Under the pieces are notes generated by a model, which worked only from the letters and a program-made list of their open reading frames with translations, ran no database searches and was not told the DNA's origin. From the IMG/VR virus record IMGVR_UViG_3300049573_000219, positions 64,001 to 128,000 of that record: a stretch of DNA of 64,000 nucleotides. One strand, written 5' to 3'. Source of the DNA: a virus. Lineage: Duplodnaviria > Caudoviricetes. The position numbers and the translations under genes were made by a program. Of this stretch, positions 4,159-24,115 are shown in pieces. Numbering within the stretch: the stretch's first letter is position 1; every line of letters begins with the position of its first letter.

Positions 4159-4181
4159 GCTTCCTTCTCCTTCCGTCCGAT

Positions 4182-4229
4182 GTGCACTGGACGCCGGGAA
4201 CCCACAGACTCCCGGCGTCCCGAACGCAC
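4182..4229 (-). other. intergenic hairpin family I (TTCG-GGA-stem-loop-TCC-AGTG)
   Basis: 11-bp inverted repeat with conserved flanks shared with 11961, 16287 and 16703. Confidence 0.6.
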
Positions 4230-4233
4230 CGGC

Positions 4234-4674
4234 TCAGAACCTCTTGCCGTCCCAGTTGATGAACTTCTCCGGGTTGTAGGACCGGATCCAGGCGAGGGCC
4301 GCTGCCTCGGCCACGGCCACGCGCTGCTCGTCTGTCCCGGGCCCGATGTACGAGTCCAGCGACTCGTACTTGATCTCCGACCAGGTCGGATCCCACTCGT
4401 CGGCGTCCCCGGCGGCGTCGTCGTCGATCTCGAACCACACCTGCGACTCGATCCCGAGGTTGTCCAGGTTCGGGCCGTAGCCCATGTGGACCTCGATCGA
4501 TCCGACCTTCGCTTCGATCGGCCGCTCGGGGGCGTGGGCGTAGGCGTACACCGTGACCCGGGCGCCGGGACAGTCCGGGTTCACGAACCGGACGCTGGCC
4601 ACCTTCCCGATCTGCGTGTCTCCGCCCACGTCGCCGTCGTCGGACCAGACTTCACCGTGCTGCGTCCATGCCAT
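4234..4674 (-). CDS. hypothetical acidic protein
   Basis: MAWTQHGEVW...; SD AAGGAG. Confidence 0.8.
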   Translation of the reverse strand: MAWTQHGEVWSDDGDVGGDTQIGKVASVRFVNPDCPGARVTVYAYAHAPERPIEAKVGSIEVHMGYGPNLDNLGIESQVWFEIDDDAAGDADEWDPTWSEIKYESLDSYIGPGTDEQRVAVAEAAALAWIRSYNPEKFINWDGKRF

Positions 4675-4700
4675 GTTCTTCTCCTTCTCCGTGGTTCGGG

Positions 4701-4907
4701 TCAGTCCTTGGGGTCGCGCGGGTGCGGGACCTTCGGGATCGCCGGGCCGTTGTCGTCCTCGCCACCGGCCGTCACGCCGGGCTGCGTCAGGCGGGACGAC
4801 GCCGGGCACGGGTTCGGGCACTGCGACGTGCACGAGTGATTCCACTCGGCGCGGATCGTGACCGGGCCGGTGATCTCCGGCTTCGGCTCCTTCGTCAGGG
4901 TGAGCAC
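4701..4907 (-). CDS. small Cys/His-containing protein
   Basis: HSCTSQCPNPC; SD GGAGG. Confidence 0.6.
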   Translation of the reverse strand: MLTLTKEPKPEITGPVTIRAEWNHSCTSQCPNPCPASSRLTQPGVTAGGEDDNGPAIPKVPHPRDPKD

Positions 4908-4944
4908 GTCGACTCCCCTCCTTCCTGGCGAGATCTCCCGCCGG

Positions 4945-5325
4945 TCAGTACTTGCGGACCTTGGACCAGCCGTCCTCGGTCTCCAGGAACGTGCCCTGGG
5001 GCTTCTGGGTGTGCTCGATGGGGGTCCCGTCCGGGAACTCGTACTCCCCGCCCTCGTACAGCTTCCGGGTGATCGTCAGACTGGCCACTTCGACCGGCTG
5101 GCCGGAGTCCATCGTGTGCAGCGTGATCTCTGTGACCAGGGGGTAGTTCTCCTGGCCTCCCGGGATCATGAAGCCGTTCGCCGACCACACGGCCGCCTCC
5201 CGAAGGGCCAGGTTCGCCGACGTCTCGAACGGTGAAACCCACACCCCTTCGTGCCGGTACCCGAAGTCACGGGACCCCTCCTTGTGGCGCCACGTCATCC
5301 GCCACAGGTCCCGAAGCTGATTCAC
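4945..5325 (-). CDS. hypothetical protein
   Basis: ORF track, SD AAGGAG. Confidence 0.8.
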   Translation of the reverse strand: MNQLRDLWRMTWRHKEGSRDFGYRHEGVWVSPFETSANLALREAAVWSANGFMIPGGQENYPLVTEITLHTMDSGQPVEVASLTITRKLYEGGEYEFPDGTPIEHTQKPQGTFLETEDGWSKVRKY

Positions 5326-5387
5326 GCTCTCTCCTTCCGAAGGGGGCGGCCGGTCTCCCGGCCGCCCCGAGCGGCGCCGTCGGCCCG

Positions 5388-5513
5388 CTACTTCTTGTCG
5401 GCGTCCATCTGCTGCGCGTTCTCCGGGGTGACCGCGATGGCCTCCGGGGGCGGGGTGTCGGCCGGGATCGGCACGTTGATCATGTCCGGGGGCTCGGGGG
5501 TCTGCTGCGTCAT
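5388..5513 (-). CDS. small Pro-rich protein (41 aa)
   Basis: MTQQTPEPPDMINVPIPADTPP...; SD AAGGA; below the ORF-track cutoff. Confidence 0.55.
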   Translation of the reverse strand: MTQQTPEPPDMINVPIPADTPPPEAIAVTPENAQQMDADKK

Positions 5514-5683
5514 GTCCTTCTCCGTCTTCCGGGGTCAGTTCCCTGTGCTCACGTGGTGCTCTGCGTGCGTTCGTCCGTACAGGTCAGAGGCCGTACTTCC
5601 GCCTGATCCTCTCGGCCTCCTGGGCGATGTCCTTCCAGTCCTGCATCACGATCACCTCCCTTCCACTCACACCGCTCACGAGC

Positions 5684-5731
5684 GGCGCTCTCGGGCCCCC
5701 GGCCGCAGCCGGTTGCCCTGGGGCGCCTCCC
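5684..5731 (-). other. intergenic hairpin family II (CCYA/GRGA internal loop)
   Basis: GGCGC-CCCA-stem-GAGA-GCGCC. Confidence 0.55.
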
Positions 5732-5732
5732 G

Positions 5733-6080
5733 TCAGGCCGGAGCGGAACCGCTGCGGATCAGGCTGGACACGAAGTCCAGCAGCTCGGCCGCGTCGGTCG
5801 GCAGCTCGCCGCCGGGGGCCAGCTTCTTCAGCAGCTCGACCGTCAGGTGCTCGGCCTGGTCCCGGCGCAGGGCGGTCACCGGGGCCGTGGTCCCGTAGTA
5901 GCCGGGGTACGGGAACGCGAAGTCCCCGCTCCGGCACAGGCCGCCGATGATGATGTCGAAGTTGTGCCCCTGCATGCTCTGCTCATTGCGCCGCCGGACG
6001 TGCTGCTCCGCCGCGTTCAGGTACTCCTCCGGTGTGGCCACCCAGGCACGGCCCTCGTTCAGGCCCTCGCTCGTCAGCAT
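5733..6080 (-). CDS. hypothetical protein
   Basis: ORF track, strong SD. Confidence 0.8.
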   Translation of the reverse strand: MLTSEGLNEGRAWVATPEEYLNAAEQHVRRRNEQSMQGHNFDIIIGGLCRSGDFAFPYPGYYGTTAPVTALRRDQAEHLTVELLKKLAPGGELPTDAAELLDFVSSLIRSGSAPA

Positions 6081-6109
6081 CTTCTCCCTCTCCGTCCGCT
6101 CGTTCGAGC

Positions 6110-6157
6110 GGCACTCCCGGGTGCCCGGCCGGAGCCGGGCACCCTAGGGTGCCTCCC
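6110..6157 (-). other. intergenic hairpin family II
   Basis: GGCAC-CCTA-GGGTGCCCGG..CCGGGCACCC-GGGA-GTGCC. Confidence 0.6.
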
Positions 6158-6159
6158 GT

Positions 6160-6480
6160 TCAGAGGTTCGCGCCGCACAGGTGGCACGCCTTGCCGTCGG
6201 CGTGCGCACCCTGGCCGTGGCCGATCCCGAACCGGCTCACCGTCTTCTTCAGGCGCTCCTCCTTCACGCCATGCAGCGGGTTGTTCCCGACGCTGTAGAG
6301 CGCGTACGCCACCTTGGCCGGGCCGCCGTCCTCGATCACGGCGTCGTAACCGCGCACGTAGCCGCTCAGGAACGGCAGGCGCAGGGCCGACGGGGATCCG
6401 GGGTCGACGTCGATCGTGACGTGGTCGCCGTACTGGAACTTCAGCGGCGTGCCGTCGGGCAGGGTCCAGGCGTCGCTCAC
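6160..6480 (-). CDS. hypothetical protein (SH3-like N-terminus, C-terminal CxxC)
   Basis: GTG start overlapping upstream stop; KFQYGDHVTI...CHLC. Confidence 0.7.
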   Translation of the reverse strand: MSDAWTLPDGTPLKFQYGDHVTIDVDPGSPSALRLPFLSGYVRGYDAVIEDGGPAKVAYALYSVGNNPLHGVKEERLKKTVSRFGIGHGQGAHADGKACHLCGANL

Positions 6481-7067
6481 TTGCCAGCCTCCTTGGCGTA
6501 CGGGGCGAACGCCTCGCGGGCCGCCTCCTCGGCGTACTCCCGGCCGATGTGACCCCAGCAGGAGTCGACGTGCTCCCACTCGCGCGTCTCGTCGTCCAGG
6601 TCGGGGTCCTCCCGGTCCTCCGCGTCCCTCGGGATGCGGGTGACGTCCTTCTCGATGATGAAGCCGTAGACCTCGCCCTCGGCCCACTTGCGGTACTGGT
6701 CGATCTCCAGCTCGATGACCCGCTTCGGCTCCCACGGCGTCTCGGCCGCCTTGTCGGGCATCAGGTACCACAAGGACCAGGCGCCGTCGTGGGGGCGGTC
6801 CTCGATGACCGTGGCGCCGTGGAAGAGCCTGGCCCACCGGGTGAAGACGGGGACCGCGTCCACGTACCGGTCCTCGATCCGCTCCCACCCGTCGGCCAGC
6901 GGGCCGCCGTTCTCGTCAACGTCGATGTACCGCTGACCCTTCGGGGTGATCACGTTCGTCAGGTTGCAGTCCTGATCGGTCCGGGGGTTCGCGCTCTCGC
7001 TCTCCTGCTGGATCTCCAGCCGCACCCGGTACCGGCCCGCCGTCTCCAGGATGTCCATGTCCGTCAT
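6477..7067 (-). CDS. conserved phage acidic protein
   Basis: YRKWAEGEVYG...DSCWG motif; SD GAGGG. Confidence 0.8.
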   Translation of the reverse strand: MTDMDILETAGRYRVRLEIQQESESANPRTDQDCNLTNVITPKGQRYIDVDENGGPLADGWERIEDRYVDAVPVFTRWARLFHGATVIEDRPHDGAWSLWYLMPDKAAETPWEPKRVIELEIDQYRKWAEGEVYGFIIEKDVTRIPRDAEDREDPDLDDETREWEHVDSCWGHIGREYAEEAAREAFAPYAKEAGK

Positions 7068-7110
7068 CTCTTCCCTCTCCTCATCCGTCGTCCGTGTTGC
7101 ACCGCCCGGC

Positions 7111-7159
7111 AACACTCCCGGGCCCCCGGCCTTCCGGCCGGGAACCCTAGGGCGTCTCC
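7111..7159 (-). other. intergenic hairpin family II
   Basis: GACGC-CCTA-12bp stem-GGGA-GTGTT. Confidence 0.6.
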
Positions 7160-7161
7160 GC

Positions 7162-7731
7162 TCAGTTGAAAGGGGTCAGCTCCAGCCGACCGTTCTCCAC
7201 GACCATCGGCCGCAGTGCCTCCCGGTCCTCCTCGGGGTCGTGACCCCTCTCCTCGCACTCGCAGCCGCCGTCGTCGGTGCCGTGCTGGATGAAGTCGCCG
7301 CAGCCGTAGCACCAGATGCAGGTCGACGGCTCGTCCAGCTCCCGCACCGTGATGCGCACCGGCTCCCCGTCGGCGTCGGCCAGGAACCGGTCCCGCTTGA
7401 ACACGTCACCCCGGGGGATGCCGAGACCGAGGTTCAGGATGCGCTCCCGGCACTCGTCGAATCCGCAGAACTCGTACAGCGTGTGCGTGGAGCCGTTGCT
7501 GTAGATCTCGATCTGCTGCGGGCCGTCCGCGTCCGTCACCTGCCGGGTCAGCTCGACCGACTCCCGGTCGACCGGGATCGCGTCGTGCGGGTACCGCCAC
7601 GACGCGCCCTCGGGGTGCAGGTGCACGACCGCACCTCCCAGGTCGTGCTCGACGATCCCGGTCTTCCCGCCGTCGTACTCCACCCGGTCGCCCCGGTCGA
7701 ACATCTGGATCCCGCGCGCCATCTCAGCCAC
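7162..7731 (-). CDS. hypothetical protein with SH3-like start and Cys motifs
   Basis: FDRGDRVEY...CYGCG. Confidence 0.75.
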   Translation of the reverse strand: MAEMARGIQMFDRGDRVEYDGGKTGIVEHDLGGAVVHLHPEGASWRYPHDAIPVDRESVELTRQVTDADGPQQIEIYSNGSTHTLYEFCGFDECRERILNLGLGIPRGDVFKRDRFLADADGEPVRITVRELDEPSTCIWCYGCGDFIQHGTDDGGCECEERGHDPEEDREALRPMVVENGRLELTPFN

Positions 7732-7752
7732 GTCGCTTCTCCCTCTCCGTCG

Positions 7753-8052
7753 CTACCAGCAGATCTCGATCAGGTACTTGCCCGCCGGGACGTTGCCCTC
7801 CCGGATCATCTTGGCCAGCACGACCTCGGGCCTCGGGCTGAAGCCCTCCATCCCGGAGTCCAGCCACTTCTTCAGCTTCCCGGCGTCCCAGTCGTCCAGC
7901 TCGTCACCCGTGGCCTCCGTGGTGTACGAGCTGTCGTTCTCCCCCTCGACCGCCAGGCAGGCGGAGTACGGAAGGCCGCCGTAGAACTCCGAGACGGCCT
8001 CGTTGAACTCCCGCTCGCCGACCTCGTGAATGATCTTCGTGTTGATCTGCAT
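7753..8052 (-). CDS. hypothetical acidic protein
   Basis: ORF track. Confidence 0.75.
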   Translation of the reverse strand: MQINTKIIHEVGEREFNEAVSEFYGGLPYSACLAVEGENDSSYTTEATGDELDDWDAGKLKKWLDSGMEGFSPRPEVVLAKMIREGNVPAGKYLIEICW

Positions 8053-8064
8053 GACGCCCCGCCC

Positions 8065-8415
8065 TCAGTAGCTGTAGCCCTCGATGGTGGCCCTCTCGTA
8101 CGCCCCGCCGTCGCTGCGGGTCCACGCCGACAGCTCCGCCGCCACGTACTCCGAGGGGTCGTCGTACTCCTTGGGGAACCCGTCGCCGTCCAGGTCGCCG
8201 TCCGTGCCGATCACGGCCACGCCACCGGTCTCCCCGGCGCCGTTGCTGAACTCCCGGCCCGCCGTCGCCGCCTCCTTGATCTGCTCGGCGTACCGGTCCC
8301 AGAAGTCGCGCCGGATCACCTCGATGTAAGGGGTGTCCACCGTCCACACGCCCGCCCACGAGTCCGTCAGGGCGACGCCGATCTCGTTCTCACCGTCGGT
8401 GATGTAGCTCCCCAT
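8065..8415 (-). CDS. hypothetical acidic protein
   Basis: MGSYITDGENE... Confidence 0.75.
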   Translation of the reverse strand: MGSYITDGENEIGVALTDSWAGVWTVDTPYIEVIRRDFWDRYAEQIKEAATAGREFSNGAGETGGVAVIGTDGDLDGDGFPKEYDDPSEYVAAELSAWTRSDGGAYERATIEGYSY

Positions 8416-8503
8416 GCTCTTCTCCGTTTCCGTCTCAACGTTCACCGTCCGACACGGCACGTCAGCGGCCGATCCCGGAGGACCGGCCGCTCCCGAACCC
8501 GTC

Positions 8504-8519
8504 GGCCTAGGCCAGGTTA
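8504..8519 (-). promoter_or_regulatory. -10 TAACCT directly followed by GGCCTAGGCC palindrome
   Basis: Intergenic; TANNNT at 8514-8519, palindrome 8504-8513. Confidence 0.5.
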
Positions 8520-8550
8520 GCGGCGCCGGGCATCCGGCGCCAGTCGTGCG

Positions 8551-8835
8551 TCAGCCGCGCCCGGACTCGTACCATCCGAGCACGTTCCGGCTCCCGTCGT
8601 CCTGCTGCGTCTGACTCCAGACGATCGACACGGCGCCGATCTCCCGGCCGCTCGAACCGTCGGAGAGCTGCGCCCGCAGCGGGCCGCCGCGCACGGTCAT
8701 CCCGGCGCTCACGCACGGGGCCAGCTCCGAGGCGATGCGGAGCTGCGTGATGGGCTCCGCCCGGACCTCCCAGTCCTCGTTCAGCTTGTCGTACGACATC
8801 GCCGGGTACCTGTTGCTTCCGTCCGCCATGCTCAT
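8551..8835 (-). CDS. hypothetical protein
   Basis: MSMADGSNRY...; coupled gene. Confidence 0.7.
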   Translation of the reverse strand: MSMADGSNRYPAMSYDKLNEDWEVRAEPITQLRIASELAPCVSAGMTVRGGPLRAQLSDGSSGREIGAVSIVWSQTQQDDGSRNVLGWYESGRG

Positions 8836-9455
8836 CCCTTCCGTCCGAACGTGAGGGTGAGGGAGTTGTCGACTCCCTTGCCGTAGCGCTTCGGCGAAAC
8901 CCGCAGAAAGCGCAGCTTGTTGCCGTCCACCAGGAACTCGTGGGCGTACTGCGGGCCGATCTCCGGCTCCCCGGTGACCGGCCAGTCGCACCGCTTGGTG
9001 ACCCGCCCCTTCCGGTCGGTCATCGAGATCCCGGTGTCGTCCTTCCGGGTGATGACCAGGTCGTCACGGAACTCGTTCGCCCCGTGGCCGAACCAGTTGA
9101 CCGACTGCCCCGTCTCGACGGTCGCGGCCAGCTCCCGCACCGTGGCCATGTCGCTCGGCAGGACCGTCCCGTGGCTGCGGCCGAACAGGCGGAAGTCACG
9201 GTTCGTGCACCCGGCGAGGAAGTTGGGACGGAAGAACTCCGCTCCCGTGAATCGCCCCTCTTCCGGCGTGACGTCCCAGTTCGGGCCCGGCGTGCAGTCC
9301 TCCCATGGCGCCAGGAACGACGTCCCGTCGGCCCGCTCGATCTCGTACGTACCGGCCCACTGGTGACCGTCCAGGTAGCGCACCCGGGCTACCCCGTAGA
9401 CCGTCTCCGCGTCCGTGTCGACGACGACCCGCAGGCCCGTCAGGTTGAGGTTCAC
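8832..9455 (-). CDS. hypothetical protein
   Basis: GTG start (VNLNLTGLRV) overlapping upstream stop. Confidence 0.75.
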   Translation of the reverse strand: MNLNLTGLRVVVDTDAETVYGVARVRYLDGHQWAGTYEIERADGTSFLAPWEDCTPGPNWDVTPEEGRFTGAEFFRPNFLAGCTNRDFRLFGRSHGTVLPSDMATVRELAATVETGQSVNWFGHGANEFRDDLVITRKDDTGISMTDRKGRVTKRCDWPVTGEPEIGPQYAHEFLVDGNKLRFLRVSPKRYGKGVDNSLTLTFGRKG

Positions 9456-10015
9456 GCGCGGTCCCCCTTCAGGATGTCCCGCTCGGCGACGTGGGCGTAC
9501 GTGATGGCCGGGGGCTTGGCGTTGAAGTGCCGGAACAGGTGGTCGTTCGACCGGGCGATGTACGCGTTCAGCGCCCGCTGCTCGTCGAAGGTGTACGTCC
9601 CGTTGCTCACCTCGCCGTACGGGTCGACGGTGTAGACCACGTACTCCCGCTTGTGGTCGGTCCACGCCAGGACCGTGCCGATCCGGCGCTCCCCGCCGCC
9701 CGCACCGTTCGCGTACTGCACGGCCAGCACGATGGAGCCGACGCCGACGATGTCGCCGCACTTGACCGTGCGGTAGCCGTTCTGCGAGTCGAGCACGTCG
9801 ATCAGGTTGTCCCGCTCCTCCGGGGACAGCACCACGTACTCCGTCTGCGTCCACGACGGGTGGTCCCCGTCGGTCACGGTCGCCTTGCCGATGCGCAGCA
9901 CGGCGTTCCCGGCGTTCGACTGCTCGACCGATCCGATCACGCTCGGGTTCGGCGCGTACTCCGACGGGCCGATACCCAGCCCCAGGATTCCCCTCAGCTT
10001 CTTGATCACGTTCAT
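9452..10015 (-). CDS. hypothetical protein
   Basis: MNVIKKLRG...; SD GGAAGGG. Confidence 0.8.
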   Translation of the reverse strand: MNVIKKLRGILGLGIGPSEYAPNPSVIGSVEQSNAGNAVLRIGKATVTDGDHPSWTQTEYVVLSPEERDNLIDVLDSQNGYRTVKCGDIVGVGSIVLAVQYANGAGGGERRIGTVLAWTDHKREYVVYTVDPYGEVSNGTYTFDEQRALNAYIARSNDHLFRHFNAKPPAITYAHVAERDILKGDRA

Positions 10016-10099
10016 CTTCCCTTCCATCTTCCGTACGTCCCACCGTGGGACACAGGCGCGCACGAGCCCCCTCCCGTGCGCCCCTGAATCACGCGGTGA

Positions 10100-10345
10100 T
10101 CACAGGCAGTCCGGGATCTCGATCCCGTTCTCCTCCAGCAGCGCCCGCAGCCCGGCGACCTCCATCCGGTGGTTGCGCTCGACCCGGGCGGCGTTGTCCC
10201 GGGCGTAGATCTGGTGAACCATCTCCGCGATCTCCGGGTCGTAGTCCGGGTCGCTGGTGTCGGGGGTGTAGGCGATCTCTCGCTCCCGGCCGCCGTTCTC
10301 CTCCCGGTACTTCCAGTCCATCGCGTCGTCGTAGTCCATCCGCAT
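10100..10345 (-). CDS. small acidic protein
   Basis: ORF track; SD GAGGTG. Confidence 0.75.
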   Translation of the reverse strand: MRMDYDDAMDWKYREENGGREREIAYTPDTSDPDYDPEIAEMVHQIYARDNAARVERNHRMEVAGLRALLEENGIEIPDCL

Positions 10346-10354
10346 GACGTCACC

Positions 10355-10882
10355 TCACCACTTGAACTTGTCGAACCAGATCAGGGTCCCGCCCTCGCGG
10401 ACCTCACCGCAGACCTCGCCCTCACCCGTGGCGTGGTCGACGTACCACTTCTCGAAGTCCTCGGGTTTGTCGAACCCCTCCCAGTCGGAGAGCGCCGGGT
10501 TCTCGTCGTCCGGGCCGATGTAGTCGGTCTCCGCGTAGTCCCGGGCCAGCTCCTCGAAGTCGGCGAACGACTCGCCCCGGTAGGACGCGATCACCTTGCG
10601 CAGATCGGCCGGGGTCAGCGCCTCCCGGTCCTCCGCGTCCAGCACGGCCAGCGCGCCGTCGATGATCTGCTCCGTGACGACCTCGCCCTTGTCCTCCCGG
10701 TCGTCGTCCGGCTCCACCGGAGCGCCGTACAGCTCGTCACAGAGCCACGCCCCGAGCGCCCCCAGCTCCCCGGCGTTCCACTCCCGGGTGTCGGTGGGGC
10801 AGAAACCGGCGACCTCCGCCACCTCCAGCGCCTCACGCCACAGCTCCAGCGGGTATGCGCTGGTCTCCACGATCTCGATCAT
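10355..10882 (-). CDS. ArdA-like acidic antirestriction/DNA-mimic protein
   Basis: Very D/E-rich; SYRGESFADFEELARDYAE...DFEKWYVD...WF resembles the ArdA C-terminal domain. Confidence 0.5.
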   Translation of the reverse strand: MIEIVETSAYPLELWREALEVAEVAGFCPTDTREWNAGELGALGAWLCDELYGAPVEPDDDREDKGEVVTEQIIDGALAVLDAEDREALTPADLRKVIASYRGESFADFEELARDYAETDYIGPDDENPALSDWEGFDKPEDFEKWYVDHATGEGEVCGEVREGGTLIWFDKFKW

Positions 10883-10961
10883 GTTTTCCGTTCTCCCTTC
10901 CGTCCGTGGTCCACGGTGGGGCACCCGGTCTCCCGGATGCCCGCCCGAAGCACGCGGATGG

Positions 10962-11480
10962 TCAGCCCTTGCACGACCCGTCGCAGTAGGTCGTCTCACC
11001 CATGCCGACGCCGGGGTTCATCAGGTCGGCGTCCTCCCCGTTGTGCCCCTCGCACGGGTTGTGATCGGCGCACCGCTTGACCAGGACGATGTTCCCGGCC
11101 GCGTCCGTGTCGACCTCGCACCCGTTGCCCTCGGCGGAGCACTCCACCCAGTCCCGCATGACGATGTACTCGCCCATCTCGACGTTGAGCACCCAGCCCT
11201 CGGGGAGCTGTTCACCCAGGTACTCGATCGCCTTGTCGGTGATGCCGCCCTGGCCGGTCATCGCCTCCAGCTTGTTCAGCTCGTCGTCCGAGGCGCCCGC
11301 GTCCGACTCTCCCGAGTTGCGGTACCACTCGACGACCGCCGTGTCCTCGGCGTCCAGCTCCATGCCGTGGTGCGTGGCGATGTCGACGATGCGGTACGAG
11401 TTCGTCCATCCGGCCGCCCCGTCCAGCCAGCATCCGGCCTCGACCTGGTTGCCGTTCTCCAGCGTGATGATCTCCGTCAT
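10962..11480 (-). CDS. hypothetical acidic protein with Cys-rich C-terminus
   Basis: MTEIITLENG...CEGH...YCDGSC. Confidence 0.75.
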   Translation of the reverse strand: MTEIITLENGNQVEAGCWLDGAAGWTNSYRIVDIATHHGMELDAEDTAVVEWYRNSGESDAGASDDELNKLEAMTGQGGITDKAIEYLGEQLPEGWVLNVEMGEYIVMRDWVECSAEGNGCEVDTDAAGNIVLVKRCADHNPCEGHNGEDADLMNPGVGMGETTYCDGSCKG

Positions 11481-11518
11481 GCCCTTCTCCTCTTCCGTCA
11501 TGATTCTGCGGATCGGTC

Positions 11519-11911
11519 TTACGCGTCGCCCTCGGCGGCGTTGATCAGCTCCTGCGCCCGCTCGGCGCCGCGCAGCTCCCATCGGCCGTAGTCCTCCCGC
11601 TCGGCCGCCGTGGCGCCGTATCGGGAGTACGCCACCTGAACGGCCAGAAGGAACTCGCCGTCGTCCCCGTTGGGCTCGATGCCCATCAGGGACAGGTACC
11701 GCATGGCGGCCGACGTGTAGAACGCGCACGCCTGCCGGGCTCCCTGCGGTCCGTACCACGTGAGCTGATCCCGCGCGTCGGCGTACGACGTCCCGTGCTC
11801 CGGGTGCGAGCCGACCGGCCCCAGCTTGAACATGCCGTCGGTGATCCGCTCGACCCGGGCCGTCACCTCCCGCACGAACGCCCCCGTGAACTTGATTCGC
11901 TCCGATTCCAC
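11519..11911 (-). CDS. hypothetical protein
   Basis: GTG start after GACGGAAGGGAG. Confidence 0.7.
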   Translation of the reverse strand: MESERIKFTGAFVREVTARVERITDGMFKLGPVGSHPEHGTSYADARDQLTWYGPQGARQACAFYTSAAMRYLSLMGIEPNGDDGEFLLAVQVAYSRYGATAAEREDYGRWELRGAERAQELINAAEGDA

Positions 11912-11960
11912 CCTTGATCTCCCTTCCGTCTGGTTCATGACCATTCGTCCGATCAGGAAC

Positions 11961-12014
11961 ACACTGGAAGATTCGGAACGCGCCCGGAAGCGCCTTCCGA
12001 ATCCTCCCGAATGC
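11961..12014 (-). other. intergenic hairpin family I
   Basis: CATTCG-GGAGGATTCGGAA...TTCCGAATCTTCC-AGTG. Confidence 0.55.
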
Positions 12015-12020
12015 CTCAGA

Positions 12021-12149
12021 TCAGGCGCCGAACGTGCGTCGGTAGGCTTCCCGGGCCTCCCGTGCCGACCGGCGCACCGCCTTCCACTGATGCCGCAGGG
12101 TCACGGCACCGCCCACCACCACGAGACCGGCGACGACGTAGCCGATCAC
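12021..12149 (-). CDS. small single-TM membrane protein (42 aa)
   Basis: MIGYVVAGLVVVGGAVTLRHQWK...; GTGA overlap. Confidence 0.6.
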   Translation of the reverse strand: MIGYVVAGLVVVGGAVTLRHQWKAVRRSAREAREAYRRTFGA

Positions 12150-12418
12150 GCGTCGAACACCAGGAAGACGTCCCGGTCGGGCGTCCCCCGGTCCCACACC
12201 GGCCGCCGCCCCGTGCCCTGTGCCAGCAGCAGCAGACCGGCAACGTGCTCCGTCGCCTCCCGGCCCTCGACCGGGTTCCCGTTGCGCTTGATCGGCAGCG
12301 GGAGCGCCAGGGTGGCGCCCGTGCGCGTGTCCCGGGCCGTCAGGCCCCGCGACTTACTCCCCGCCGGACCGACCTCCGTGCCCCGGACGATGATCTCTCG
12401 CGGCTTCTCCTGCGTCAT
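12146..12418 (-). CDS. hypothetical protein
   Basis: ORF track, SD GAGG. Confidence 0.75.
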   Translation of the reverse strand: MTQEKPREIIVRGTEVGPAGSKSRGLTARDTRTGATLALPLPIKRNGNPVEGREATEHVAGLLLLAQGTGRRPVWDRGTPDRDVFLVFDA

Positions 12419-12450
12419 GCTGCGTTCCTCTCCCTCGTTGCCGGGCCCGT

Positions 12451-12669
12451 TCAGGCCCGGAAGTTGTAGCCCATCAGGCGCTCGTGGATCATCCGCACGG
12501 CGGGCCGGTCGGCCAGCTCCCGCGCGACCTCCGCGTGCGCCTCCATGTCGTCGTCCGGGAGCACGTGACGGGGGCGGCTGAACTCTCCCGCCCCGCCCTC
12601 CGTGATCACGGCCTTGACCTTCTCCGGCTCCGTGGCGGTCGGCGCCACCCGGTACGTCCAGATGATCAC
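12451..12669 (-). CDS. hypothetical protein
   Basis: GTG start overlapping upstream stop. Confidence 0.65.
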   Translation of the reverse strand: MIIWTYRVAPTATEPEKVKAVITEGGAGEFSRPRHVLPDDDMEAHAEVARELADRPAVRMIHERLMGYNFRA

Positions 12670-13154
12670 GCCGTGACCTCCTTGTGGATCAGCGCCCACC
12701 CGTACGCCTGAGACTCGGGGTCGTAGTCGGCGTGTTCGCAGCGCTCCCGCTCCGTCCACTCCTGGCACGGCATCCCGTCCTCCCCGGCGCCGCACGTGGG
12801 CGGGTGCATCTCGACCGAGACGATCGCCCACAGTCCCGGCGTCTCGCGGATGTGGTCCTCCAGGTCCCGCCCGAAGTGCTGCCGTCCCGGGTCGAACGCG
12901 AACAGCGATCCCGCCCCGGCCCACCCGGTGAGCACTCGCCACCCGTTCTCGACCCCGGCGATGGCCGCCCGCTCGTGGTCCTCCAGCACGTCCGGCATCT
13001 CCCAGTCGCCCGACCAGTCGATGTCGATGGACTCCGGCGCGTAGTCCTCCAGCCGCGCGGGCGGGTACGCGGCCGTCTCGAACGTCCCGTCAGGCTTGAC
13101 AAGGATCGGCAACGCGCTCGGCCCGTGCAGCGCCTCATCCAGCGTCTCGGCCAC
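12666..13154 (-). CDS. hypothetical acidic protein
   Basis: ORF track, strong SD. Confidence 0.75.
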   Translation of the reverse strand: MAETLDEALHGPSALPILVKPDGTFETAAYPPARLEDYAPESIDIDWSGDWEMPDVLEDHERAAIAGVENGWRVLTGWAGAGSLFAFDPGRQHFGRDLEDHIRETPGLWAIVSVEMHPPTCGAGEDGMPCQEWTERERCEHADYDPESQAYGWALIHKEVTA

Positions 13155-13241
13155 GGTTCATTTCTCCCTTCCGTCCGGACCGTCCGGCACCACGGACCCG
13201 CACGGAATCGCTCCCGTGCAGGCCCGAAGCACTGCGCTCCG

Positions 13242-13481
13242 TCACCGTTCCCGCAGGTCGTCGCCGTGCGTGTAGCTGAACCTGGTCCCGGCGACGTGTA
13301 TGGAGTATCCGTCGCCGTTCGACACGTCCTCTCCCAGCTCATCGAGCCGGTCCAGAATCCGCTCCAGCTCCCCGTACGCCTCCCGGATCTGCACCCGCGC
13401 CGGGTCGGCCGCCAGTTCGTCACGCTCCCGCTGGAGTCGGGCGATCTGTGCGTCTATCGCCTTCAGCTTGTCGCCGCTCAC
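13242..13481 (-). CDS. small coiled-coil protein
   Basis: ORF track, SD GGAGG. Confidence 0.7.
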   Translation of the reverse strand: MSGDKLKAIDAQIARLQRERDELAADPARVQIREAYGELERILDRLDELGEDVSNGDGYSIHVAGTRFSYTHGDDLRER

Positions 13482-13494
13482 GTGCGCCCCTCCC

Positions 13495-13953
13495 TCACAT
13501 CCACACCGGCACGATCCGGTGCCCCTGGTTGGCGGCCAGGAATGCCATCCGTTCGGCCCGGCTGCTCATCCCCTCCGCGTCCGTCGGCCGGTTCAGGGTC
13601 ATGCGCAGCCGGGACAGGGTGGTCCCCTCCAGGACCGGCGCGTCCCATGTCCACAGGGTGACCAGCCGTACCGTCTCGCTCGCTTCCGCCTCCCGGCTCT
13701 GCGAGACCTCGCAGAGCGATCCCGGGATCATGTAGTGCTTGCCGATGCACACGCGCGGCTCGTCCTCGACCGCCTTGTGCAGCAGCTCTTGCATGTGCCC
13801 GAGGTGATTCGACAGGCCGATGTATCCCTGCCAGTCGGGATCCGTCCCGTCGCCCGTCTCGGGAGACAGGAACAGGTCGGCCGCGCCCGCGCGTCCCGCC
13901 GTCCACAGCCACCGCTTACCGGCCGGGAGCCGGTACAGGTATGTGTGCTTCAC
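13495..13953 (-). CDS. hypothetical protein
   Basis: GTG start overlapping upstream stop. Confidence 0.7.
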   Translation of the reverse strand: MKHTYLYRLPAGKRWLWTAGRAGAADLFLSPETGDGTDPDWQGYIGLSNHLGHMQELLHKAVEDEPRVCIGKHYMIPGSLCEVSQSREAEASETVRLVTLWTWDAPVLEGTTLSRLRMTLNRPTDAEGMSSRAERMAFLAANQGHRIVPVWM

Positions 13954-14195
13954 GCCTGCCTCACCTCGTGCTGCGTGTCGCCGTCCAGTACGACGACCTC
14001 GCCCTTGACCAGCACGTACGGCGTCGAGCCGTTCCCGTAGGCCATCGCGTACACCCGGCGCCACACCCCCAGGTACTCGACCATGTGCGCCGTCGGGATC
14101 TTCCCGCCGTACCCCGTCACGGTCTGCCCGCTCACCGGCACATCCGTGACCTTGACTCCCGTCACGCTGGCCGGTTCCGTGTACTGCACCGTCAT
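13950..14195 (-). CDS. conserved small phage protein
   Basis: GYGGKIPT-HMV-WRRVY-YGNGSTPY motif. Confidence 0.75.
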   Translation of the reverse strand: MTVQYTEPASVTGVKVTDVPVSGQTVTGYGGKIPTAHMVEYLGVWRRVYAMAYGNGSTPYVLVKGEVVVLDGDTQHEVRQA

Positions 14196-14497
14196 GCCGT
14201 CACCTCTCCCATGCCCGGCTCCCGCACCGCTTCCGTCACGCGCGCCAGGAACGCGGCGCTCACCGCCGGGAAGTCGTCCGACGCCATCGCGGCGCGGATC
14301 CTCCCGTCGGTCGTCACGACCCACACGCCGTAGCGCGTGCGGCCGTTGCCTCCCGTGCGCAGGGTCAGCAGCGTCCCCGCGACCCCGTAGCCACCGTGAA
14401 AGACCTTGAACACGTGATGCACGTCAGCCCGCGCATCCGCGATCTCGTCCCCCGGCTGCATGTGCACGCGCACCGGTTCCGTCGTCGTCGCCCTCAC
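14192..14497 (-). CDS. hypothetical protein
   Basis: GTG start after GACGGAAGGGAG. Confidence 0.7.
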   Translation of the reverse strand: MRATTTEPVRVHMQPGDEIADARADVHHVFKVFHGGYGVAGTLLTLRTGGNGRTRYGVWVVTTDGRIRAAMASDDFPAVSAAFLARVTEAVREPGMGEVTA

Positions 14498-14588
14498 GTT
14501 TCCCTCTCCCTTCCGTCGAGCCGTCACCACACGGACGGATGCGGGACCGTGGCCCCGCGCCCGCCCGAACAGCGGCGCCCCGTGAGCG

Positions 14589-15212
14589 TCAGACCGTCGG
14601 CCGGTTGGCCGTGATCAGGTCGAACAGCGGGTGCGGCTCCCACTTCCGGTTGCCGTCGGCGTCCGTGCCCGGGTACGTCGGCCGCTCACCCTTGCACTCC
14701 CGCAGCGTGCGGCGCAGGGTCGCAATGTCGACGTCCGTGTACGCCCGGATCAGAGCCAGGTCGATCTCCGTCTCCAGCATGATCCGGCGCGCGGCCTCCC
14801 GGTTCCCGTTCCGCCGGGCGCTCTCCGCGTGCTCGTCGTTCGTGACCGTGGACAGGGCCAGGGAGTACTCCCAGTACCGCACGGAGTCGTCCACGAGCAT
14901 CGTGTCCATGTCGCCCCCGCGCTTCACCGCGCGCAGGATGCGGGACCGCTCCGTGATCAGGGCCAGGAACTTCCCCCGGTCCATGCCGTCCTCCCACAGG
15001 TCCGACCACGTCGGCCGGATCCCGCGCACGTCAGCGCCGTTCGCGTAGCTGTGCGCCATGTGCGCCATGTGACGCCACATGGTCACCGCGTCCTGCGACT
15101 CCTGCCCCAGGTAGCCGGGCTGTCCCGGACCGGGGCGCCCGTCGTGCTTCCGGCGCGTGTTGATCAGCAGGTCGGCCAGCAGACCATGGAATTCCTCAAC
15201 CGTGCGACCCAT
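14589..15212 (-). CDS. hypothetical protein
   Basis: MGRTVEEFHG...; SD GGGAG. Confidence 0.8.
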   Translation of the reverse strand: MGRTVEEFHGLLADLLINTRRKHDGRPGPGQPGYLGQESQDAVTMWRHMAHMAHSYANGADVRGIRPTWSDLWEDGMDRGKFLALITERSRILRAVKRGGDMDTMLVDDSVRYWEYSLALSTVTNDEHAESARRNGNREAARRIMLETEIDLALIRAYTDVDIATLRRTLRECKGERPTYPGTDADGNRKWEPHPLFDLITANRPTV

Positions 15213-15276
15213 CGCGTTCTCCCTTCCGGCCGGGCCCGTCATGGGCCCGGCATCCGTCCGTCACTTCCGTGCGTTG

Positions 15277-15558
15277 CTACGCGGCGAGACCCATCCGGTA
15301 CGGGTCCGGCGACCACTCCCGCGTCTGCCCGTCGTGGTGCTCGTACGTCACCGTGACGTCGTGAAGGACCAGCTTCCCGCCCTCCGTCGCGTACGTGGTG
15401 TGGATCTCCAGTTGGGTACCGGAGTTCAGGTTGTTGCGCAGCCTCCCCATGATCAGGTCGGCCACCTGCTCATCCGTGGCGAACCGCAAGGGCACATACT
15501 CACCCGTGATGCACTCCGTGCACCCGCAGTCCCACGGGTCAACGGCGATCAGCTTCAC
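15277..15558 (-). CDS. small protein with CGCTEC motif
   Basis: ORF track, coupled gene. Confidence 0.75.
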   Translation of the reverse strand: MKLIAVDPWDCGCTECITGEYVPLRFATDEQVADLIMGRLRNNLNSGTQLEIHTTYATEGGKLVLHDVTVTYEHHDGQTREWSPDPYRMGLAA

Positions 15559-15824
15559 CTACGCCACCGGATCCCTTCCCCGAAGTGGGAGTCACAGGTC
15601 TGCGGGGTGTGGTGCCCCTCTCCCGGACATCCCCGGAACCGGCGCCCGTGCAGCCTCTCCCACAGGGAGTAGGCGCCGTTCGTCACGTTCCTCTTGATCA
15701 GGTCGACGAACGCGTACGACAGCCCGAGGGAGGCCCGGGAGTACAGTTCCTGCCCGTCCGCGTCCCGCAGTACCGCGCGCCCGTCCTCCGTGAGGGAAAC
15801 CGTCATGATGACATGCTCATCCAT
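15555..15824 (-). CDS. hypothetical protein
   Basis: MDEHVIMTV... Confidence 0.7.
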   Translation of the reverse strand: MDEHVIMTVSLTEDGRAVLRDADGQELYSRASLGLSYAFVDLIKRNVTNGAYSLWERLHGRRFRGCPGEGHHTPQTCDSHFGEGIRWRR

Positions 15825-15826
15825 GA

Positions 15827-16264
15827 TCAGATCCCGTTGCTCCGGCGGGGCGCTCCCGTGTTCACGAGACCGATCATTTTCCGGCACGCCCGGCACGTCA
15901 CGCCCGTGAGCGCCGTCCCCGACGACCAGACCGACAGGGAGTTCCCCAGGTTCCGGGACGCCGGGCACAGACCGGCCGGAGGCTGGCCAGGCACGTGGTT
16001 GAGCAGCGCGTGCCCCTGCGTGTCCCTCCCGGGCACCTTGCCGTACTCCTGCGTGCGGAACGTGGCCACGCCGACGACCAGCGTCCCGTCCGCCCCGGGG
16101 AAGTGCCGGTTCCCGTCCGTGTCGTACAGGAACTGTTCCTGCGGCACCCGCCCGTCACGGCTCCCCGGCGTCCAGCCGTCCAGGTCGGCGATCACGAAAC
16201 CGCCCGCCGTCTGGAGCAGCGAACCGCGCCTGATGTCGTCGATCCTCTGTCGCGTCGTGTCCAT
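15827..16264 (-). CDS. hypothetical protein with C-terminal H/C zinc motif
   Basis: HAL...LCPA...VTCRAC. Confidence 0.75.
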   Translation of the reverse strand: MDTTRQRIDDIRRGSLLQTAGGFVIADLDGWTPGSRDGRVPQEQFLYDTDGNRHFPGADGTLVVGVATFRTQEYGKVPGRDTQGHALLNHVPGQPPAGLCPASRNLGNSLSVWSSGTALTGVTCRACRKMIGLVNTGAPRRSNGI

Positions 16265-16286
16265 GCTTCCCGTTCTCCCTTCCGTC

Positions 16287-16337
16287 GGTAATGCACTGGA
16301 CCGCCCGGCCCCCTTCCGGGCAGTCCCGAACGTCACC
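16287..16337 (-). other. intergenic hairpin family I
   Basis: CGTTCG-GGACTGCCCGG-purine loop-CCGGGCGGTCC-AGTGCA. Confidence 0.6.
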
Positions 16338-16339
16338 GC

Positions 16340-16675
16340 TCAGACAGGCCGCTCGACACACAGCAGGTCGACCCGGTGAAGGTAGGTCTCCTCCGTGGTG
16401 CCGTCGTCGTTCTTGAACGTGACCGTGATCGTCCCGGGGTCCGCGTCGCCGCCCGTGCGCACCACGGAAACGATCTCCCGCATCTTGTCGCGGCTCCCGT
16501 ACGCGCGCCACGTGTCCGTGGGCGGGTGCATGTAACCGGCCCGCGTCCGCTCGATCCGGGGCCGGATGTTCTCGGCGTCCATCCCGCGCAGTCCGATGAT
16601 CTTCTCGAAGTCCCGCGCGTGCTCACTCGCCCGTGCGAGCGCTTCCCCGGGCTTCAGGTAGTCGTACGTCGCCAT
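16340..16675 (-). CDS. hypothetical protein
   Basis: MATYDYLKPG...; SD GAGGG. Confidence 0.75.
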   Translation of the reverse strand: MATYDYLKPGEALARASEHARDFEKIIGLRGMDAENIRPRIERTRAGYMHPPTDTWRAYGSRDKMREIVSVVRTGGDADPGTITVTFKNDDGTTEETYLHRVDLLCVERPV

Positions 16676-16702
16676 GTTCTTCCCTCTTTCCGTCGTCCGG
16701 TC

Positions 16703-16745
16703 GTGCACTGGAATGCCGGGCCCCCTCCCGGCACTCCCGAACGCG
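16703..16745 (-). other. intergenic hairpin family I
   Basis: CGTTCG-GGAGTGCCGGG-purine loop-CCCGGCATTCC-AGTGCAC. Confidence 0.6.
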
Positions 16746-16761
16746 GCCGTGCGCCCGTGTG

Positions 16762-17160
16762 TCAGTCCTGCGGCGTCTCGCGGTACGTGCTGAACGACGC
16801 GACCGCCGTGCGGATCTTGTTCATGCCGGTCACGGTCGTCTGCGACTCGGCGTCGAAACCGAGCGTCCCGCGCGCCGGGATCGTCCACGTGCCGTCAGCG
16901 TTGCGCCAGGCGATCGGCGTCTCGTAGCTGAACACCACGTAGGTGGACCGGGCCGCTTCCGCGTGCCACTCCCGCGCGAGTCGGCCGACCTCCGACGGAC
17001 GGGATCCCGCCGACCCCGGGCGCCCGCTCAGGTGGCCGGACGTCTCGAACGGCTTGCCGTCCTTCAGGACCGCCGCGTACGCCTCCCACCGCGCGTCACG
17101 GAGCACCTTGCCGTCGCGCCACGTCGTGACCTTCGCGTTCAGCTTGACCGTCTCACCCAT
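16762..17160 (-). CDS. conserved phage protein
   Basis: YVVFSYETPIAW motif. Confidence 0.8.
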   Translation of the reverse strand: MGETVKLNAKVTTWRDGKVLRDARWEAYAAVLKDGKPFETSGHLSGRPGSAGSRPSEVGRLAREWHAEAARSTYVVFSYETPIAWRNADGTWTIPARGTLGFDAESQTTVTGMNKIRTAVASFSTYRETPQD

Positions 17161-17188
17161 GATCTTCTCCCTCTCCGTATTCCCGTTC

Positions 17189-17212
17189 GGCCTAGGCCGC
17201 TGCCCGATCATA
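17189..17212 (-). promoter_or_regulatory. -10 TATGAT (17207-17212) with downstream GGCCTAGGCC palindrome (17189-17198)
   Basis: Intergenic; repeated motif. Confidence 0.5.
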
Positions 17213-17273
17213 GACCGGCTGGAACGCCCGGAGGACCCGGGCGCTCCCGTCCGCCTACATCGTGACCCGTTCG

Positions 17274-17630
17274 TTACTTCCCGCAGGTCTCGCAGCGCGC
17301 GGGCGGCGTGTCCTTCTTGACCCACACCGCCGGGCCCGTCTCCCGCAGCGCCTCCCGCGCGCCGTTCAGGTCCGTGTCGTACCGGATCATGTCGCGCGTG
17401 TTCGAGATGTCGATCACGTTCGGGTCGTCCGTCTCCCGGATCTGCCAGACGTCCAGGCCGCCCGGCCGCGACTCCACCGCAAGCGCCTTACCGGGGCCCA
17501 TCATCAGCATGACGCCGTACCCGTCCGGCCGCATGACGTGAACCGAGTCCTGGCGCTCACCCTTGAACGGTCCCGTCACGACCGCGCCGAACTCCAGCGA
17601 GAGGTGACCCGCGATCTGCATGAGATCCAC
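17274..17630 (-). CDS. hypothetical protein, C-terminal CxxC
   Basis: ORF track. Confidence 0.75.
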   Translation of the reverse strand: MDLMQIAGHLSLEFGAVVTGPFKGERQDSVHVMRPDGYGVMLMMGPGKALAVESRPGGLDVWQIRETDDPNVIDISNTRDMIRYDTDLNGAREALRETGPAVWVKKDTPPARCETCGK

Positions 17631-17717
17631 TTCCGTACTCCCTTCCGTCCGTTCCCGTGAATCGGGAACCCACGGGGAACGTCCCGCCGCAGCGGAACGC
17701 CCCCGAAGATCACCGGT

Positions 17718-18083
17718 TCAGTCGCCGATCGAGTAGTAGTTCTCCCGGGTGCACGTGGCGCACGTCGTGCGGTCCCCCCACGCTTCCTGTCGCGTGGTGA
17801 CGATCCCGCGCCCGTCCGCGTCCGGGTGCTCCCCGACCTCCGTACGCGTCTCGTACGGCCAGCACGCGGCGCAACGGCGGATCGGTTCGGGCCGGTCGAC
17901 CGGGAACCCCTCGTGCGTCTCGGGGTCCTTCCCGTAGTAGCGGCGGCACGGCTCCCCCTCGTGGGCGAACACGTACTGCGGGAAGCCGTACCGCTTTTCC
18001 GTGCCGACCAGCCGGACCGGCTGACCACACCCCCGCTCCGAACAGCGGAGCTGCCAGACGATCGTCAGGTTGTTGGTGCTCAT
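17718..18083 (-). CDS. small multi-CxxC zinc-binding protein
   Basis: CSERGC, CAAC, CATC. Confidence 0.75.
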   Translation of the reverse strand: MSTNNLTIVWQLRCSERGCGQPVRLVGTEKRYGFPQYVFAHEGEPCRRYYGKDPETHEGFPVDRPEPIRRCAACWPYETRTEVGEHPDADGRGIVTTRQEAWGDRTTCATCTRENYYSIGD

Positions 18084-18117
18084 TCCGTTTCTCCCTCTCC
18101 TCGTTCCCGTCAGCCGG

Positions 18118-18435
18118 TCACCCCTTGCGCTGCTCCATGCGCGGCTTGCGGCCGGTCTCCGTGACCAGCTCCCACCCGCACGCCTGCTGTTCCGCGAGGA
18201 TCGTCCGGCCCCGGGCCGTCAGCCGCAGGTCTTCGAACTCCCGGCCCGCCAGTACGCCCACGTCGATCAGCTTCAGGACCGTATCGGCGCGCGGGTTGGA
18301 CTTCGTCCCGTGGCCCCGCTCCATGGACGCGATGACCGACGGGCTGAACCCGCCGCCCAGCGAGTAACTGACGCGTGCGTGCGGACTGTCGACCAGGAAC
18401 ATCACGAGCCGTCCGGCCGCAGAAAGTTTCGCCAT
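18118..18435 (-). CDS. helix-turn-helix DNA-binding protein (XRE-like/winged)
   Basis: GFSPSVIASMERG...NPRADTVLKL, then LRLTARGR. Confidence 0.6.
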   Translation of the reverse strand: MAKLSAAGRLVMFLVDSPHARVSYSLGGGFSPSVIASMERGHGTKSNPRADTVLKLIDVGVLAGREFEDLRLTARGRTILAEQQACGWELVTETGRKPRMEQRKG

Positions 18436-18527
18436 GATCGTTTCTCCCTCTCCTCGTGTCCATCCGCGATAGACAGGCTGGAGCGCCCCGGCCCCCTTCC
18501 GGGGCGCTCCCGTCCGCCGGTCCCGGA

Positions 18528-18938
18528 CTACTTCTTGATCTTGACCCCCATGGCCTTGCAGTCCATCACGCCGACCGTCCCGGCCACCGACAGAACGAGC
18601 CGGTAGTTCCGGAAGTGGTCATACGCCACGTCGTTCAGCGCGTCGATGATCCCGGCGCGGGTGTGACCCGTGGCCGTGGCGTCCAGGCACAGCGCGCGAC
18701 GCTCCCGCGCGGGGATGACCTTGCCGGTGTCGACGTAGCGGAACCACAGGTTCACGCCGTCCAGCACGGTCCCGCGCGTCAGGCACAGCCGGTCGTACGC
18801 GGGCATCCCCCGGTATCCGGTCTCGCAGACCGACCGGACCGCCGGACGCTTCCCGCCCGCCGGGGCCGCGTCCGCCGGAGCGGAGAACGCGAACAGCGCG
18901 ACGAAACCGGCCAGGATGGTGACGATGGGCTTACGCAT
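18528..18938 (-). CDS. secreted protein
   Basis: Sec signal MRKPIVTILAGFVALFAFSAPADA. Confidence 0.7.
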   Translation of the reverse strand: MRKPIVTILAGFVALFAFSAPADAAPAGGKRPAVRSVCETGYRGMPAYDRLCLTRGTVLDGVNLWFRYVDTGKVIPARERRALCLDATATGHTRAGIIDALNDVAYDHFRNYRLVLSVAGTVGVMDCKAMGVKIKK

Positions 18939-19004
18939 GTGATCTTCCCTCTTTCCGAACCAAACGGACCCGGTCCGACGTGACCGGGTCCCGCAGTGCC
19001 GGGC

Positions 19005-19058
19005 GGCACTCCCGGCGCCCCGGACCCCGTGGGGCCCGGTTCGCCTAGGGCGTCTCCC
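19005..19058 (-). other. intergenic hairpin family II
   Basis: GGAGACGC-CCTA-stem-GGGA-GTGCC. Confidence 0.55.
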
Positions 19059-19063
19059 CGACG

Positions 19064-19447
19064 TCAGAGCGTGTTGATCATGTCCCGGTACCGCGCCACG
19101 TCCTCCGCCGTGAGCCGGTGACCGGCGAACTCCGATTCCAGCAGGCCGCGCGCCGTGTCATGGAACGACTGACGCGAGAGGGAGGCCAGACGCGGGCGCG
19201 GGCGCCCGTCGTGGTCGCGCGTGGTCACGTGGCCGGGCTTCAGGGTCGTGAACCTGTAGACCCTCCCGTCGGTCATCTCCGCGACGCCCCGGGCGATGCA
19301 GTTCGGGTCACCCGGCATCATGTCGAACGTGATCTCCCGCGCGACCGTGTGGCCGCTGACGTCCTCCCCGCGCCCGTACTCGTACCCGTTCGGCCCGTAC
19401 GGCGCCGCCGTGTCCCACCACACCCCGCGCGTCATGGATTCCTGCAT
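19064..19447 (-). CDS. hypothetical protein
   Basis: ORF track, SD. Confidence 0.75.
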   Translation of the reverse strand: MQESMTRGVWWDTAAPYGPNGYEYGRGEDVSGHTVAREITFDMMPGDPNCIARGVAEMTDGRVYRFTTLKPGHVTTRDHDGRPRPRLASLSRQSFHDTARGLLESEFAGHRLTAEDVARYRDMINTL

Positions 19448-19477
19448 GTCCCGTCTCCCTTCCCGTTCTTCCTGTCT

Positions 19478-19498
19478 GGCCTAGGTCACCGGATGTTA
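19478..19498 (-). promoter_or_regulatory. -10 TAACAT (19493-19498) with downstream GACCTAGGCC palindrome (19478-19487)
   Basis: Repeated motif; the TAA also serves as the upstream stop. Confidence 0.45.
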
Positions 19499-22714: not shown

Positions 22715-22765
22715 GATTTCCCCTTCCCGCGTCGCATCCCCGAATGGTGCGACGTCAGACAGAGT

Positions 22766-22948: not shown

Positions 22949-22949
22949 T

Positions 22950-24060: not shown

Positions 24061-24115
24061 GGCTGCCATTGCAAGTGTGTGGTTGCTGACACGGCATCAG
24101 GTGATCAAGGAACAT

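Follow-up and report, generated by a model that had tools for sequence, protein, structure and literature searches.

The window analysed here, a stretch of 64,000 nucleotides (bases 64001-128000 of the 187,033-bp virus record IMGVR_UViG_3300049573_000219, which carries direct terminal repeats), contains a family of RNA hairpins, family I, in which an invariant core of mismatches is held between two covarying helices. The elements lie on the minus strand, between the genes of a long arm of small genes, and their structure, strand, position and core are conserved across a clade of phages; the evidence supports selection on them as structures of the mRNA-sense strand. They are most likely cis-acting RNA elements of the arm's long polycistronic transcript, and the family most likely belongs to a familiar kind of phage signal, a mark for cutting, protecting or factor binding. 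Among such functions we tentatively favour, at somewhat less than even confidence and by analogy, intercistronic cut-and-protect marks like those of phage T7, with host RNase III (AbsB) as the best candidate enzyme and shielding by the ribosome-binding site (RBS).

Structure, covariation and position of the hairpins

The layout of the tightest class, Ia, was obtained from a MAFFT alignment of nine sequences, the four Ia sites of the window and five from other viral contigs. It has three parts: an outer helix of 6 bp, a core, and an upper stem-loop. The core oppositions are, in order, C.A, G-C, U.G, U.U, C-G and G.A, followed by the GGA/UCC pairs. Across 22 distinct elements the arms measure 22–31 positions (mean 25.7), which amounts to two or more helical turns; the upper stems range from 10 to 19 positions, and the loops are tetraloops in 8 elements and purine-rich 6–8-mers in another 8. 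A preliminary description of this DNA had the flanks pair into a lower stem that leaves a small bulge. The lower stem does pair, and the covarying outer helix carries it further than had been described. Given that the C.A, U.G, U.U and G.A oppositions sit inside an uninterrupted helix, the supposed bulge is instead a run of symmetric, non-Watson-Crick mismatches.

The same flanks, UUCGGGA and UCCAGUG, enclose unrelated stems at the four Ia sites, and the strict flank pattern with a gap of 18–46 nt occurs 4 times in the window compared with 0.02 expected from shuffles, in agreement with the original observation of conserved flanks around differing stems. From the nine-sequence layout we built a covariance model, R1 (67 positions, 20 pairs), and fitted to it the 22 distinct Ia sequences, drawn from five genomes, as the covariation sample. 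That the stems vary while keeping their pairing, as had been proposed, is borne out by changes on both sides at 18 of the 20 pairs and by standard pairs in 95.9% of cells; none of 500 shuffles matched any of five pairing measures, and sliding the 3' partners by 1–3 columns lowered pairing to 35–50%. A second MAFFT alignment of 17 members, made independently, gave an identical structure in RNAalifold, in which 15 pairs were compensated. Beside the core, the GGA/UCC pairs changed by double substitution only, and the unpaired core letters were conserved in 20–22 of the 22 sequences. When class Ib, a looser class defined below, was aligned alone from four phages, the same architecture emerged, with U.G, U.U and C-G invariant and 15 of 20 pairs compensated.

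The great excess of G.U over A.C cells (61 versus 6) indicates that the fold is read in mRNA. The sense strand was the more stable in all 22 elements, with a mean of -38.8 kcal/mol versus -31.2 kcal/mol for the antisense strand, and R1 scored far lower on the reverse (plus) strand.

As first noted, every site is preceded by a stop codon and followed by the next Shine-Dalgarno (SD) block. The upstream stop codon precedes the outer helix by 0–12 nt and often touches it, while on the other side a conserved purine-rich block, CGGACGGAAGGGAGAA, comes at most a few nucleotides after the helix; the start codon is mostly 16–24 nt past the helix, and in some members about 50 nt. The 16-nt form of this ribosome-binding block occurs in 11 window copies (allowing up to 3 mismatches) compared with 1.2 expected, and 10 of the 11 immediately precede start codons on the minus strand. 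Minus-strand copies are located at 16273-16288 and at 305-320, 8832-8847, 10891-10906, 11917-11932, 13162-13177, 14504-14519, 15217-15232 and 17636-17651. The elements were correctly said to lack U-tracts, with no T run longer than 2 after any of them. Between 3500 and 23000, in a scan of the sequence rather than of transcripts, we counted 5 terminator-like sites versus 5.7 expected, none of them at an element, and 2 promoter-like sites versus 0.8 expected, which is no excess of either kind for an arm in which all elements are intercistronic.

Classes of element and their spread among phages

The arm comprises about 110 small minus-strand genes running from roughly -23,200 to 28,900 in window coordinates (according to a GC3-based gene model), and it is broken at 22,715-25,837 by a 3.1-kb stretch of lower GC content without genes. 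The closest named relative of the virus is Streptomyces phage Frankenweenie, with 87.5% identity over the aligned parts; the Streptomyces phages Satis, Quantum, EhyElimayoE and Kradal are about 79% identical, or 73% by a more sensitive search. All genes of the matching arm are annotated as hypothetical in Frankenweenie and Satis, and ten larger arm proteins searched against Pfam contained no domain. There are no tRNA genes in the window. Rfam 15 gave no match at gathering score across it, and at E values up to 5 the interval 4000-19200 gave just three chance-level matches, none on the hairpin elements. Family I is a new, well-supported cis-regulatory RNA motif that is absent from Rfam, and its covariance model is ready for use; the motif covers a clade of 100–260-kb Streptomyces phages whose small-gene arm is otherwise hypothetical throughout.

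The copies fall into three grades. Class Ia is tight and has four members; class Ib keeps only the U.G, U.U and C-G oppositions and comprises five sites listed earlier, which carry the flanks UUCGG and CCGUG, plus one new candidate; class Ic keeps only C-G, G.A and the GGA-UCC step, within other outer flanks, at two sites whose sequences run GACGGGA ... UCCAGCC. Run on its own genome, R1 scored the four Ia sites at 59–78 bits and everything else at 25 bits or less. With filters off over window positions 1–29000, the 11 sites of the preliminary description, all of which read on the minus strand as described, were among the top minus-strand matches, with Ia at 59–78 bits, Ic at 23–24 bits and Ib at 11–23 bits.

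All elements given here are on the minus strand. The Ia element with the highest score (78.4 bits, E 2e-19) is at 4170-4236, where the outer helix directly adjoins the stop codon and is followed by the SD. The element at 11947-12023 (59.5 bits) has a long upper stem of 19 positions and has orthologues with altered stems in Satis, Frankenweenie and the viral genome G002. The other two have purine-rich loops, of 7 nt at 16279-16342 (74.3 bits) and of 6 nt at 16693-16753 (65.6 bits); the upper stem of the latter recurs at a neighbouring site in G002. In class Ib, the element at 8442-8509 (22.9 bits) has orthologues in G002, Frankenweenie and Satis, that at 10897-10961 (19.1 bits) ends in a GNRA-type tetraloop, and that at 13180-13238 (17.3 bits) shows compensatory changes relative to its orthologue in the viral genome G001. 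Those at 14518-14581 (11 bits over 14530-14569) and 17656-17719 (15.1 bits) share in the RNAalifold consensus of the class, as does 10897-10961, and the former folds at -29 kcal/mol with its core pairs closed. A candidate Ib-like variant absent from the earlier list occupies 10037-10099 (16.5 bits, E 0.013), a hairpin in the gap 10028-10099. The class Ic elements, 17219-17249 (23.5 bits) and 18478-18512 (24.3 bits), are local matches to model positions 15–50. An extra Ib-type copy lies beyond the window, at positions 52232-52268 of the record (G000:C1, window -11768 to -11732), and it too has orthologues in G002, Frankenweenie and Satis.

Hairpins are the rule in this arm, with some 45 of them along roughly 50 kb. 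Forty of the 48 co-directional arm gaps of 35–200 nt fold better in the sense direction, and by pattern the 48 include 4 Ia, 7 Ib-like, 2 Ic and 4 gaps with a second hairpin class. Between 8,416 and 18,527, family I is present in 11 of 13 gaps.

A covariance-model search of phages, set beforehand as a check on the family, recovered 3–5 strong copies (>45 bits) in each of seven relatives, namely Frankenweenie, Satis and five IMG/VR contigs of 102–260 kb, and all of these copies were on the small-gene strand. At orthologous sites the cores are identical and the stems between them wholly different, so that the flanks are invariant among phages only 73–88% identical in which the intervening stems have been replaced. 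Using the strict 21-nt pattern on one genome per species from 185,579 bacterial and archaeal species, we detected four matches, in unrelated metagenome-assembled genomes; none was in Streptomyces and none of the four folds into the hairpin of this family. A looser 16-nt pattern gave mostly chance matches on viral contigs, and a folding filter was applied to them.

Two local differences between relatives involve the elements. In IMG/VR contig 3300049571_000380 (L144), the neighbouring elements at 1501-1563 and 1915-1975 have identical upper stems, which suggests conversion between copies; in the orthologous pair of the window (16279-16342 and 16693-16753) the upper stems differ. A gene of 323 aa, located at window positions 3187-4158 downstream of the element at 4170-4236, is missing in Satis (L128), where one element directly joins both of its neighbours. 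In the 260-kb relative 3300049141_000098 (L142), the same gene is flanked by an element on each side, and the elements thus bound the indel.

Processing marks, protein-binding sites and other readings

The early transcript of T7 carries a set of RNase III signals, R0.3, R0.5, R1, R1.1 and R1.3. Such signals are intercistronic irregular hairpins of about two turns, with some 20 bp or more and a conserved interruption between upper and lower stem, and the present elements share these features, their irregularity being the invariant C.A, U.U and G.A between covarying helices. By analogy, they would also occur as several copies in one polycistronic early message made by the host RNA polymerase (RNAP), leaving upstream RNAs that end in hairpins. 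The arm message is probably made by host polymerase, and sigma-70 region 2 (PF04542) was not found in the phage. There are differences, too: the context is that of a GC-rich actinophage, there is no sequence likeness, symmetric mismatches in a row form the interruption where T7 has an asymmetric internal loop, and the enzyme here would be the Streptomyces AbsB, with cleavage postulated by analogy.

In the cut-and-protect reading, the small-gene arm would be transcribed as one unit and a double-strand-specific endoribonuclease, with host AbsB as the best candidate, would recognise the irregular two-turn helix, using the mismatch core as its recognition site and cutting at or beside it. The upstream message would then keep a 3' hairpin that blocks 3' exonucleases, and the downstream message would start just before a strong ribosome-binding block, a possible shield from the 5' exonuclease RNase J. 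Both enzymes exist in Streptomyces, where AbsB cuts mRNA hairpins (PMC4681348, PMC2936110). Stabilisation of processed 5' ends by a purine-rich RBS is described for phage SP82 RNA and mycobacterial katG in the summary given by PMC7509114. The early RNA of SP82, a Bacillus phage with Bs-RNase III sites, may also be a parallel in having a processing hairpin followed by a purine-rich RBS in a host with RNase J, a likeness that we infer from the layout alone (Hue et al. 1995, as cited in PMC7509114). Taken together, the two-turn helix with its conserved irregularity, the lack of U-tract termination, the presence of the host enzymes and the precedent for RBS shielding lead us to favour this reading.

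Several observations weigh against it. The core, invariant in 20–22 of 22 sequences, has a sequence specificity above that usual for recognition by RNase III, and its distance from the loop is variable, given that the upper stem spans 10 to 19 positions. The arm also holds hairpins of other classes, whose conserved internal loop differs or is missing, and since cores are conserved class by class, a single generic nuclease is an inadequate explanation. The strict motif is absent from the bacterial genomes scanned, so no use of it by a host is seen, and a PF14622 search found no RNase III gene in the phage.

Given that the core is more specific than RNase III needs and that the second hairpin class has a fixed loop of its own, binding by a protein is a serious, if unlikely, rival. 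Here the elements would be operators: a dedicated phage or host RNA-binding protein would dock on the core to set how the downstream cistron is translated or degraded, and a post-transcriptional regulon of about a dozen arm genes would result, comparable to that of T4 RegA, which acts on early messages as a post-transcriptional regulator. A fixed non-Watson-Crick core between two covarying helices, GGA/UCC pairs altered by double substitution alone, an SD block a short way off, the restriction of the motif to this phage clade and the existence of distinct hairpin classes with distinct cores in one arm would all be expected of such operators. Opposed to them are the variable distance to the start codon, the loss of part of the core in both Ib and Ic, and the failure to find a candidate protein, the ten larger arm proteins being without a Pfam domain. 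It is doubtful, to a similar degree, that the core is a dock for a phage-encoded RNA-binding protein or nuclease, rather than for host RNase III, serving this dozen-cistron regulon; if it were, a core with a dedicated reader and the fixed loop of the second class would amount to two-channel timing of early-gene expression. A still bolder variant would make the hairpin-ended early RNAs substrates of the phage's own Ro60/Y-RNA module. The preliminary description had offered processing sites and protein-binding sites as alternatives; by analogy, the anatomy, strand and intercistronic siting of the elements agree with both, as nuclease site or as operator. Its further suggestion of antitermination accords with the position of the sites and gained no other support.

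The elements also resemble, in being very stable GC hairpins immediately past stop codons, the terminators without U-tracts that Ingham, Hunter and Smith are said to have described in 1995 in the early region of phiC31, likewise a Streptomyces phage with GC hairpins after its early genes. Those hairpins were reportedly described as terminators, and we know of no conserved mismatch core in them. As pause, attenuation or factor-dependent termination sites, the elements would grade transcription along the arm, which we consider improbable. With some 45 such hairpins along ~50 kb and no promoter-like sites inside the arm, the distal genes would be starved of transcripts, and termination would leave unexplained why the stem has an invariant mismatch core at its base. 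Moreover, purified mycobacterial RNAP, with or without NusA or NusG, did not terminate at hairpins without a U-tract, and nuclease cleavage was proposed by the authors as the cause of 3' ends at such hairpins (PMC3993855). Since U-tracts are absent here and the purified polymerase reads past hairpins that lack them, canonical termination is excluded. GC hairpins of this kind after stop codons offer a test bed for termination versus processing in actinobacteria and their phages.

Slightly less probable again is that these are generic stabilising hairpins without any reader, their shared flanks reflecting common descent and gene conversion between neighbouring gaps. Two neighbouring G002 sites with identical upper stems, a one-gene indel bounded by elements and the presence of some hairpin in nearly every arm gap can be read in this way. 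However, neutral descent should erode flanks and stems equally, and what we observe is flanks fixed while stems are replaced, with mismatches that stay mismatches and do not drift to pairs. Very unlikely, finally, are sites acting at the DNA level, either integron-like recombination sites folded from a single strand or hot spots of cassette exchange. Their conserved ends, variable centre and placement after each small gene recall attC arrays, and the 323-aa gene between two G001 elements is missing in Satis, but a tyrosine recombinase (PF00589) was not found in the genome in a search whose positive control matched in 14 of 14 genomes. On inspection, the flanks do not fit the attC R''/R' core consensus, the elements hold orthologous places, and the many G.U pairs point to RNA. 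The invariant core would allow clean point mutations (G.A to G-C, U.U to U-A) and could serve as a bait for whatever factor reads it.

Among actinophages, the start-associated sequences (SAS) and their extended form (ESAS) in Cluster K mycobacteriophages come nearest in layout. There, a conserved asymmetric block is found at the translation starts of a subset of non-structural genes, and inverted repeats that have a variable spacer precede about half of the blocks (PMC3203893). The 17-bp arms of ESAS are themselves conserved, and the authors saw little evidence that an mRNA hairpin forms (PMC3203893). In family I, in contrast, the arms vary and covary, what is fixed being the base of the stem alone, and the block is a different 16-nt sequence, not the 13-bp SAS.

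Rejected candidates and other features of the arm

Further explanations were tried and rejected. An upstream open reading frame starting at the GTG of the 3' flank would have frames and stops that differ from member to member. If ribosomes were to bypass from the final sense codon onto the TTC in the 5' flank (compare PMC10732093), the codons would have to match, and they do so only in the orthologues of one site. A promoter split over the two flanks would have a variable spacing, 22 to 36 nt in the window and up to 36 nt in relatives, and promoters are not in excess. Pairing of the core in trans with another phage RNA was considered as well, and complementary 8-mers were no commoner than expected by chance and did not fall in any known non-coding RNA. 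An intrinsic (Rho-independent) terminator was discarded on the longest T run of 2 and the lack of any terminator-like call at the elements.

The low-GC, gene-free stretch contains, amid TTGCATTCC-like repeats, 11 nt that match the 3' flank of Ia, at 25514-25524 on the minus strand; they have no surrounding hairpin, and the match is probably due to chance. The second hairpin class is found on the minus strand at 5680-5732, 6081-6159, 7068-7161 and 18939-19063. It is built in the same three parts as family I: the outer helix covaries, the symmetric internal loop, with CCYAGG on its 5' side, is fixed, and the upper stem varies. Another minus-strand hairpin, at 5268-5315, has Ib-type flanks and carries AGGAGG inside a bulge on its 3' side. 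The GTG in its 3' flank is a plausible start of the gene at 4945-5298, and from its sequence this hairpin would sequester its own ribosome-binding site. Copies of a 10-bp palindrome centred on CCTAGG also lie beside hairpins in the longer gaps, at 17161-17273, 8416-8550, 19448-19495 and 2249-2316.

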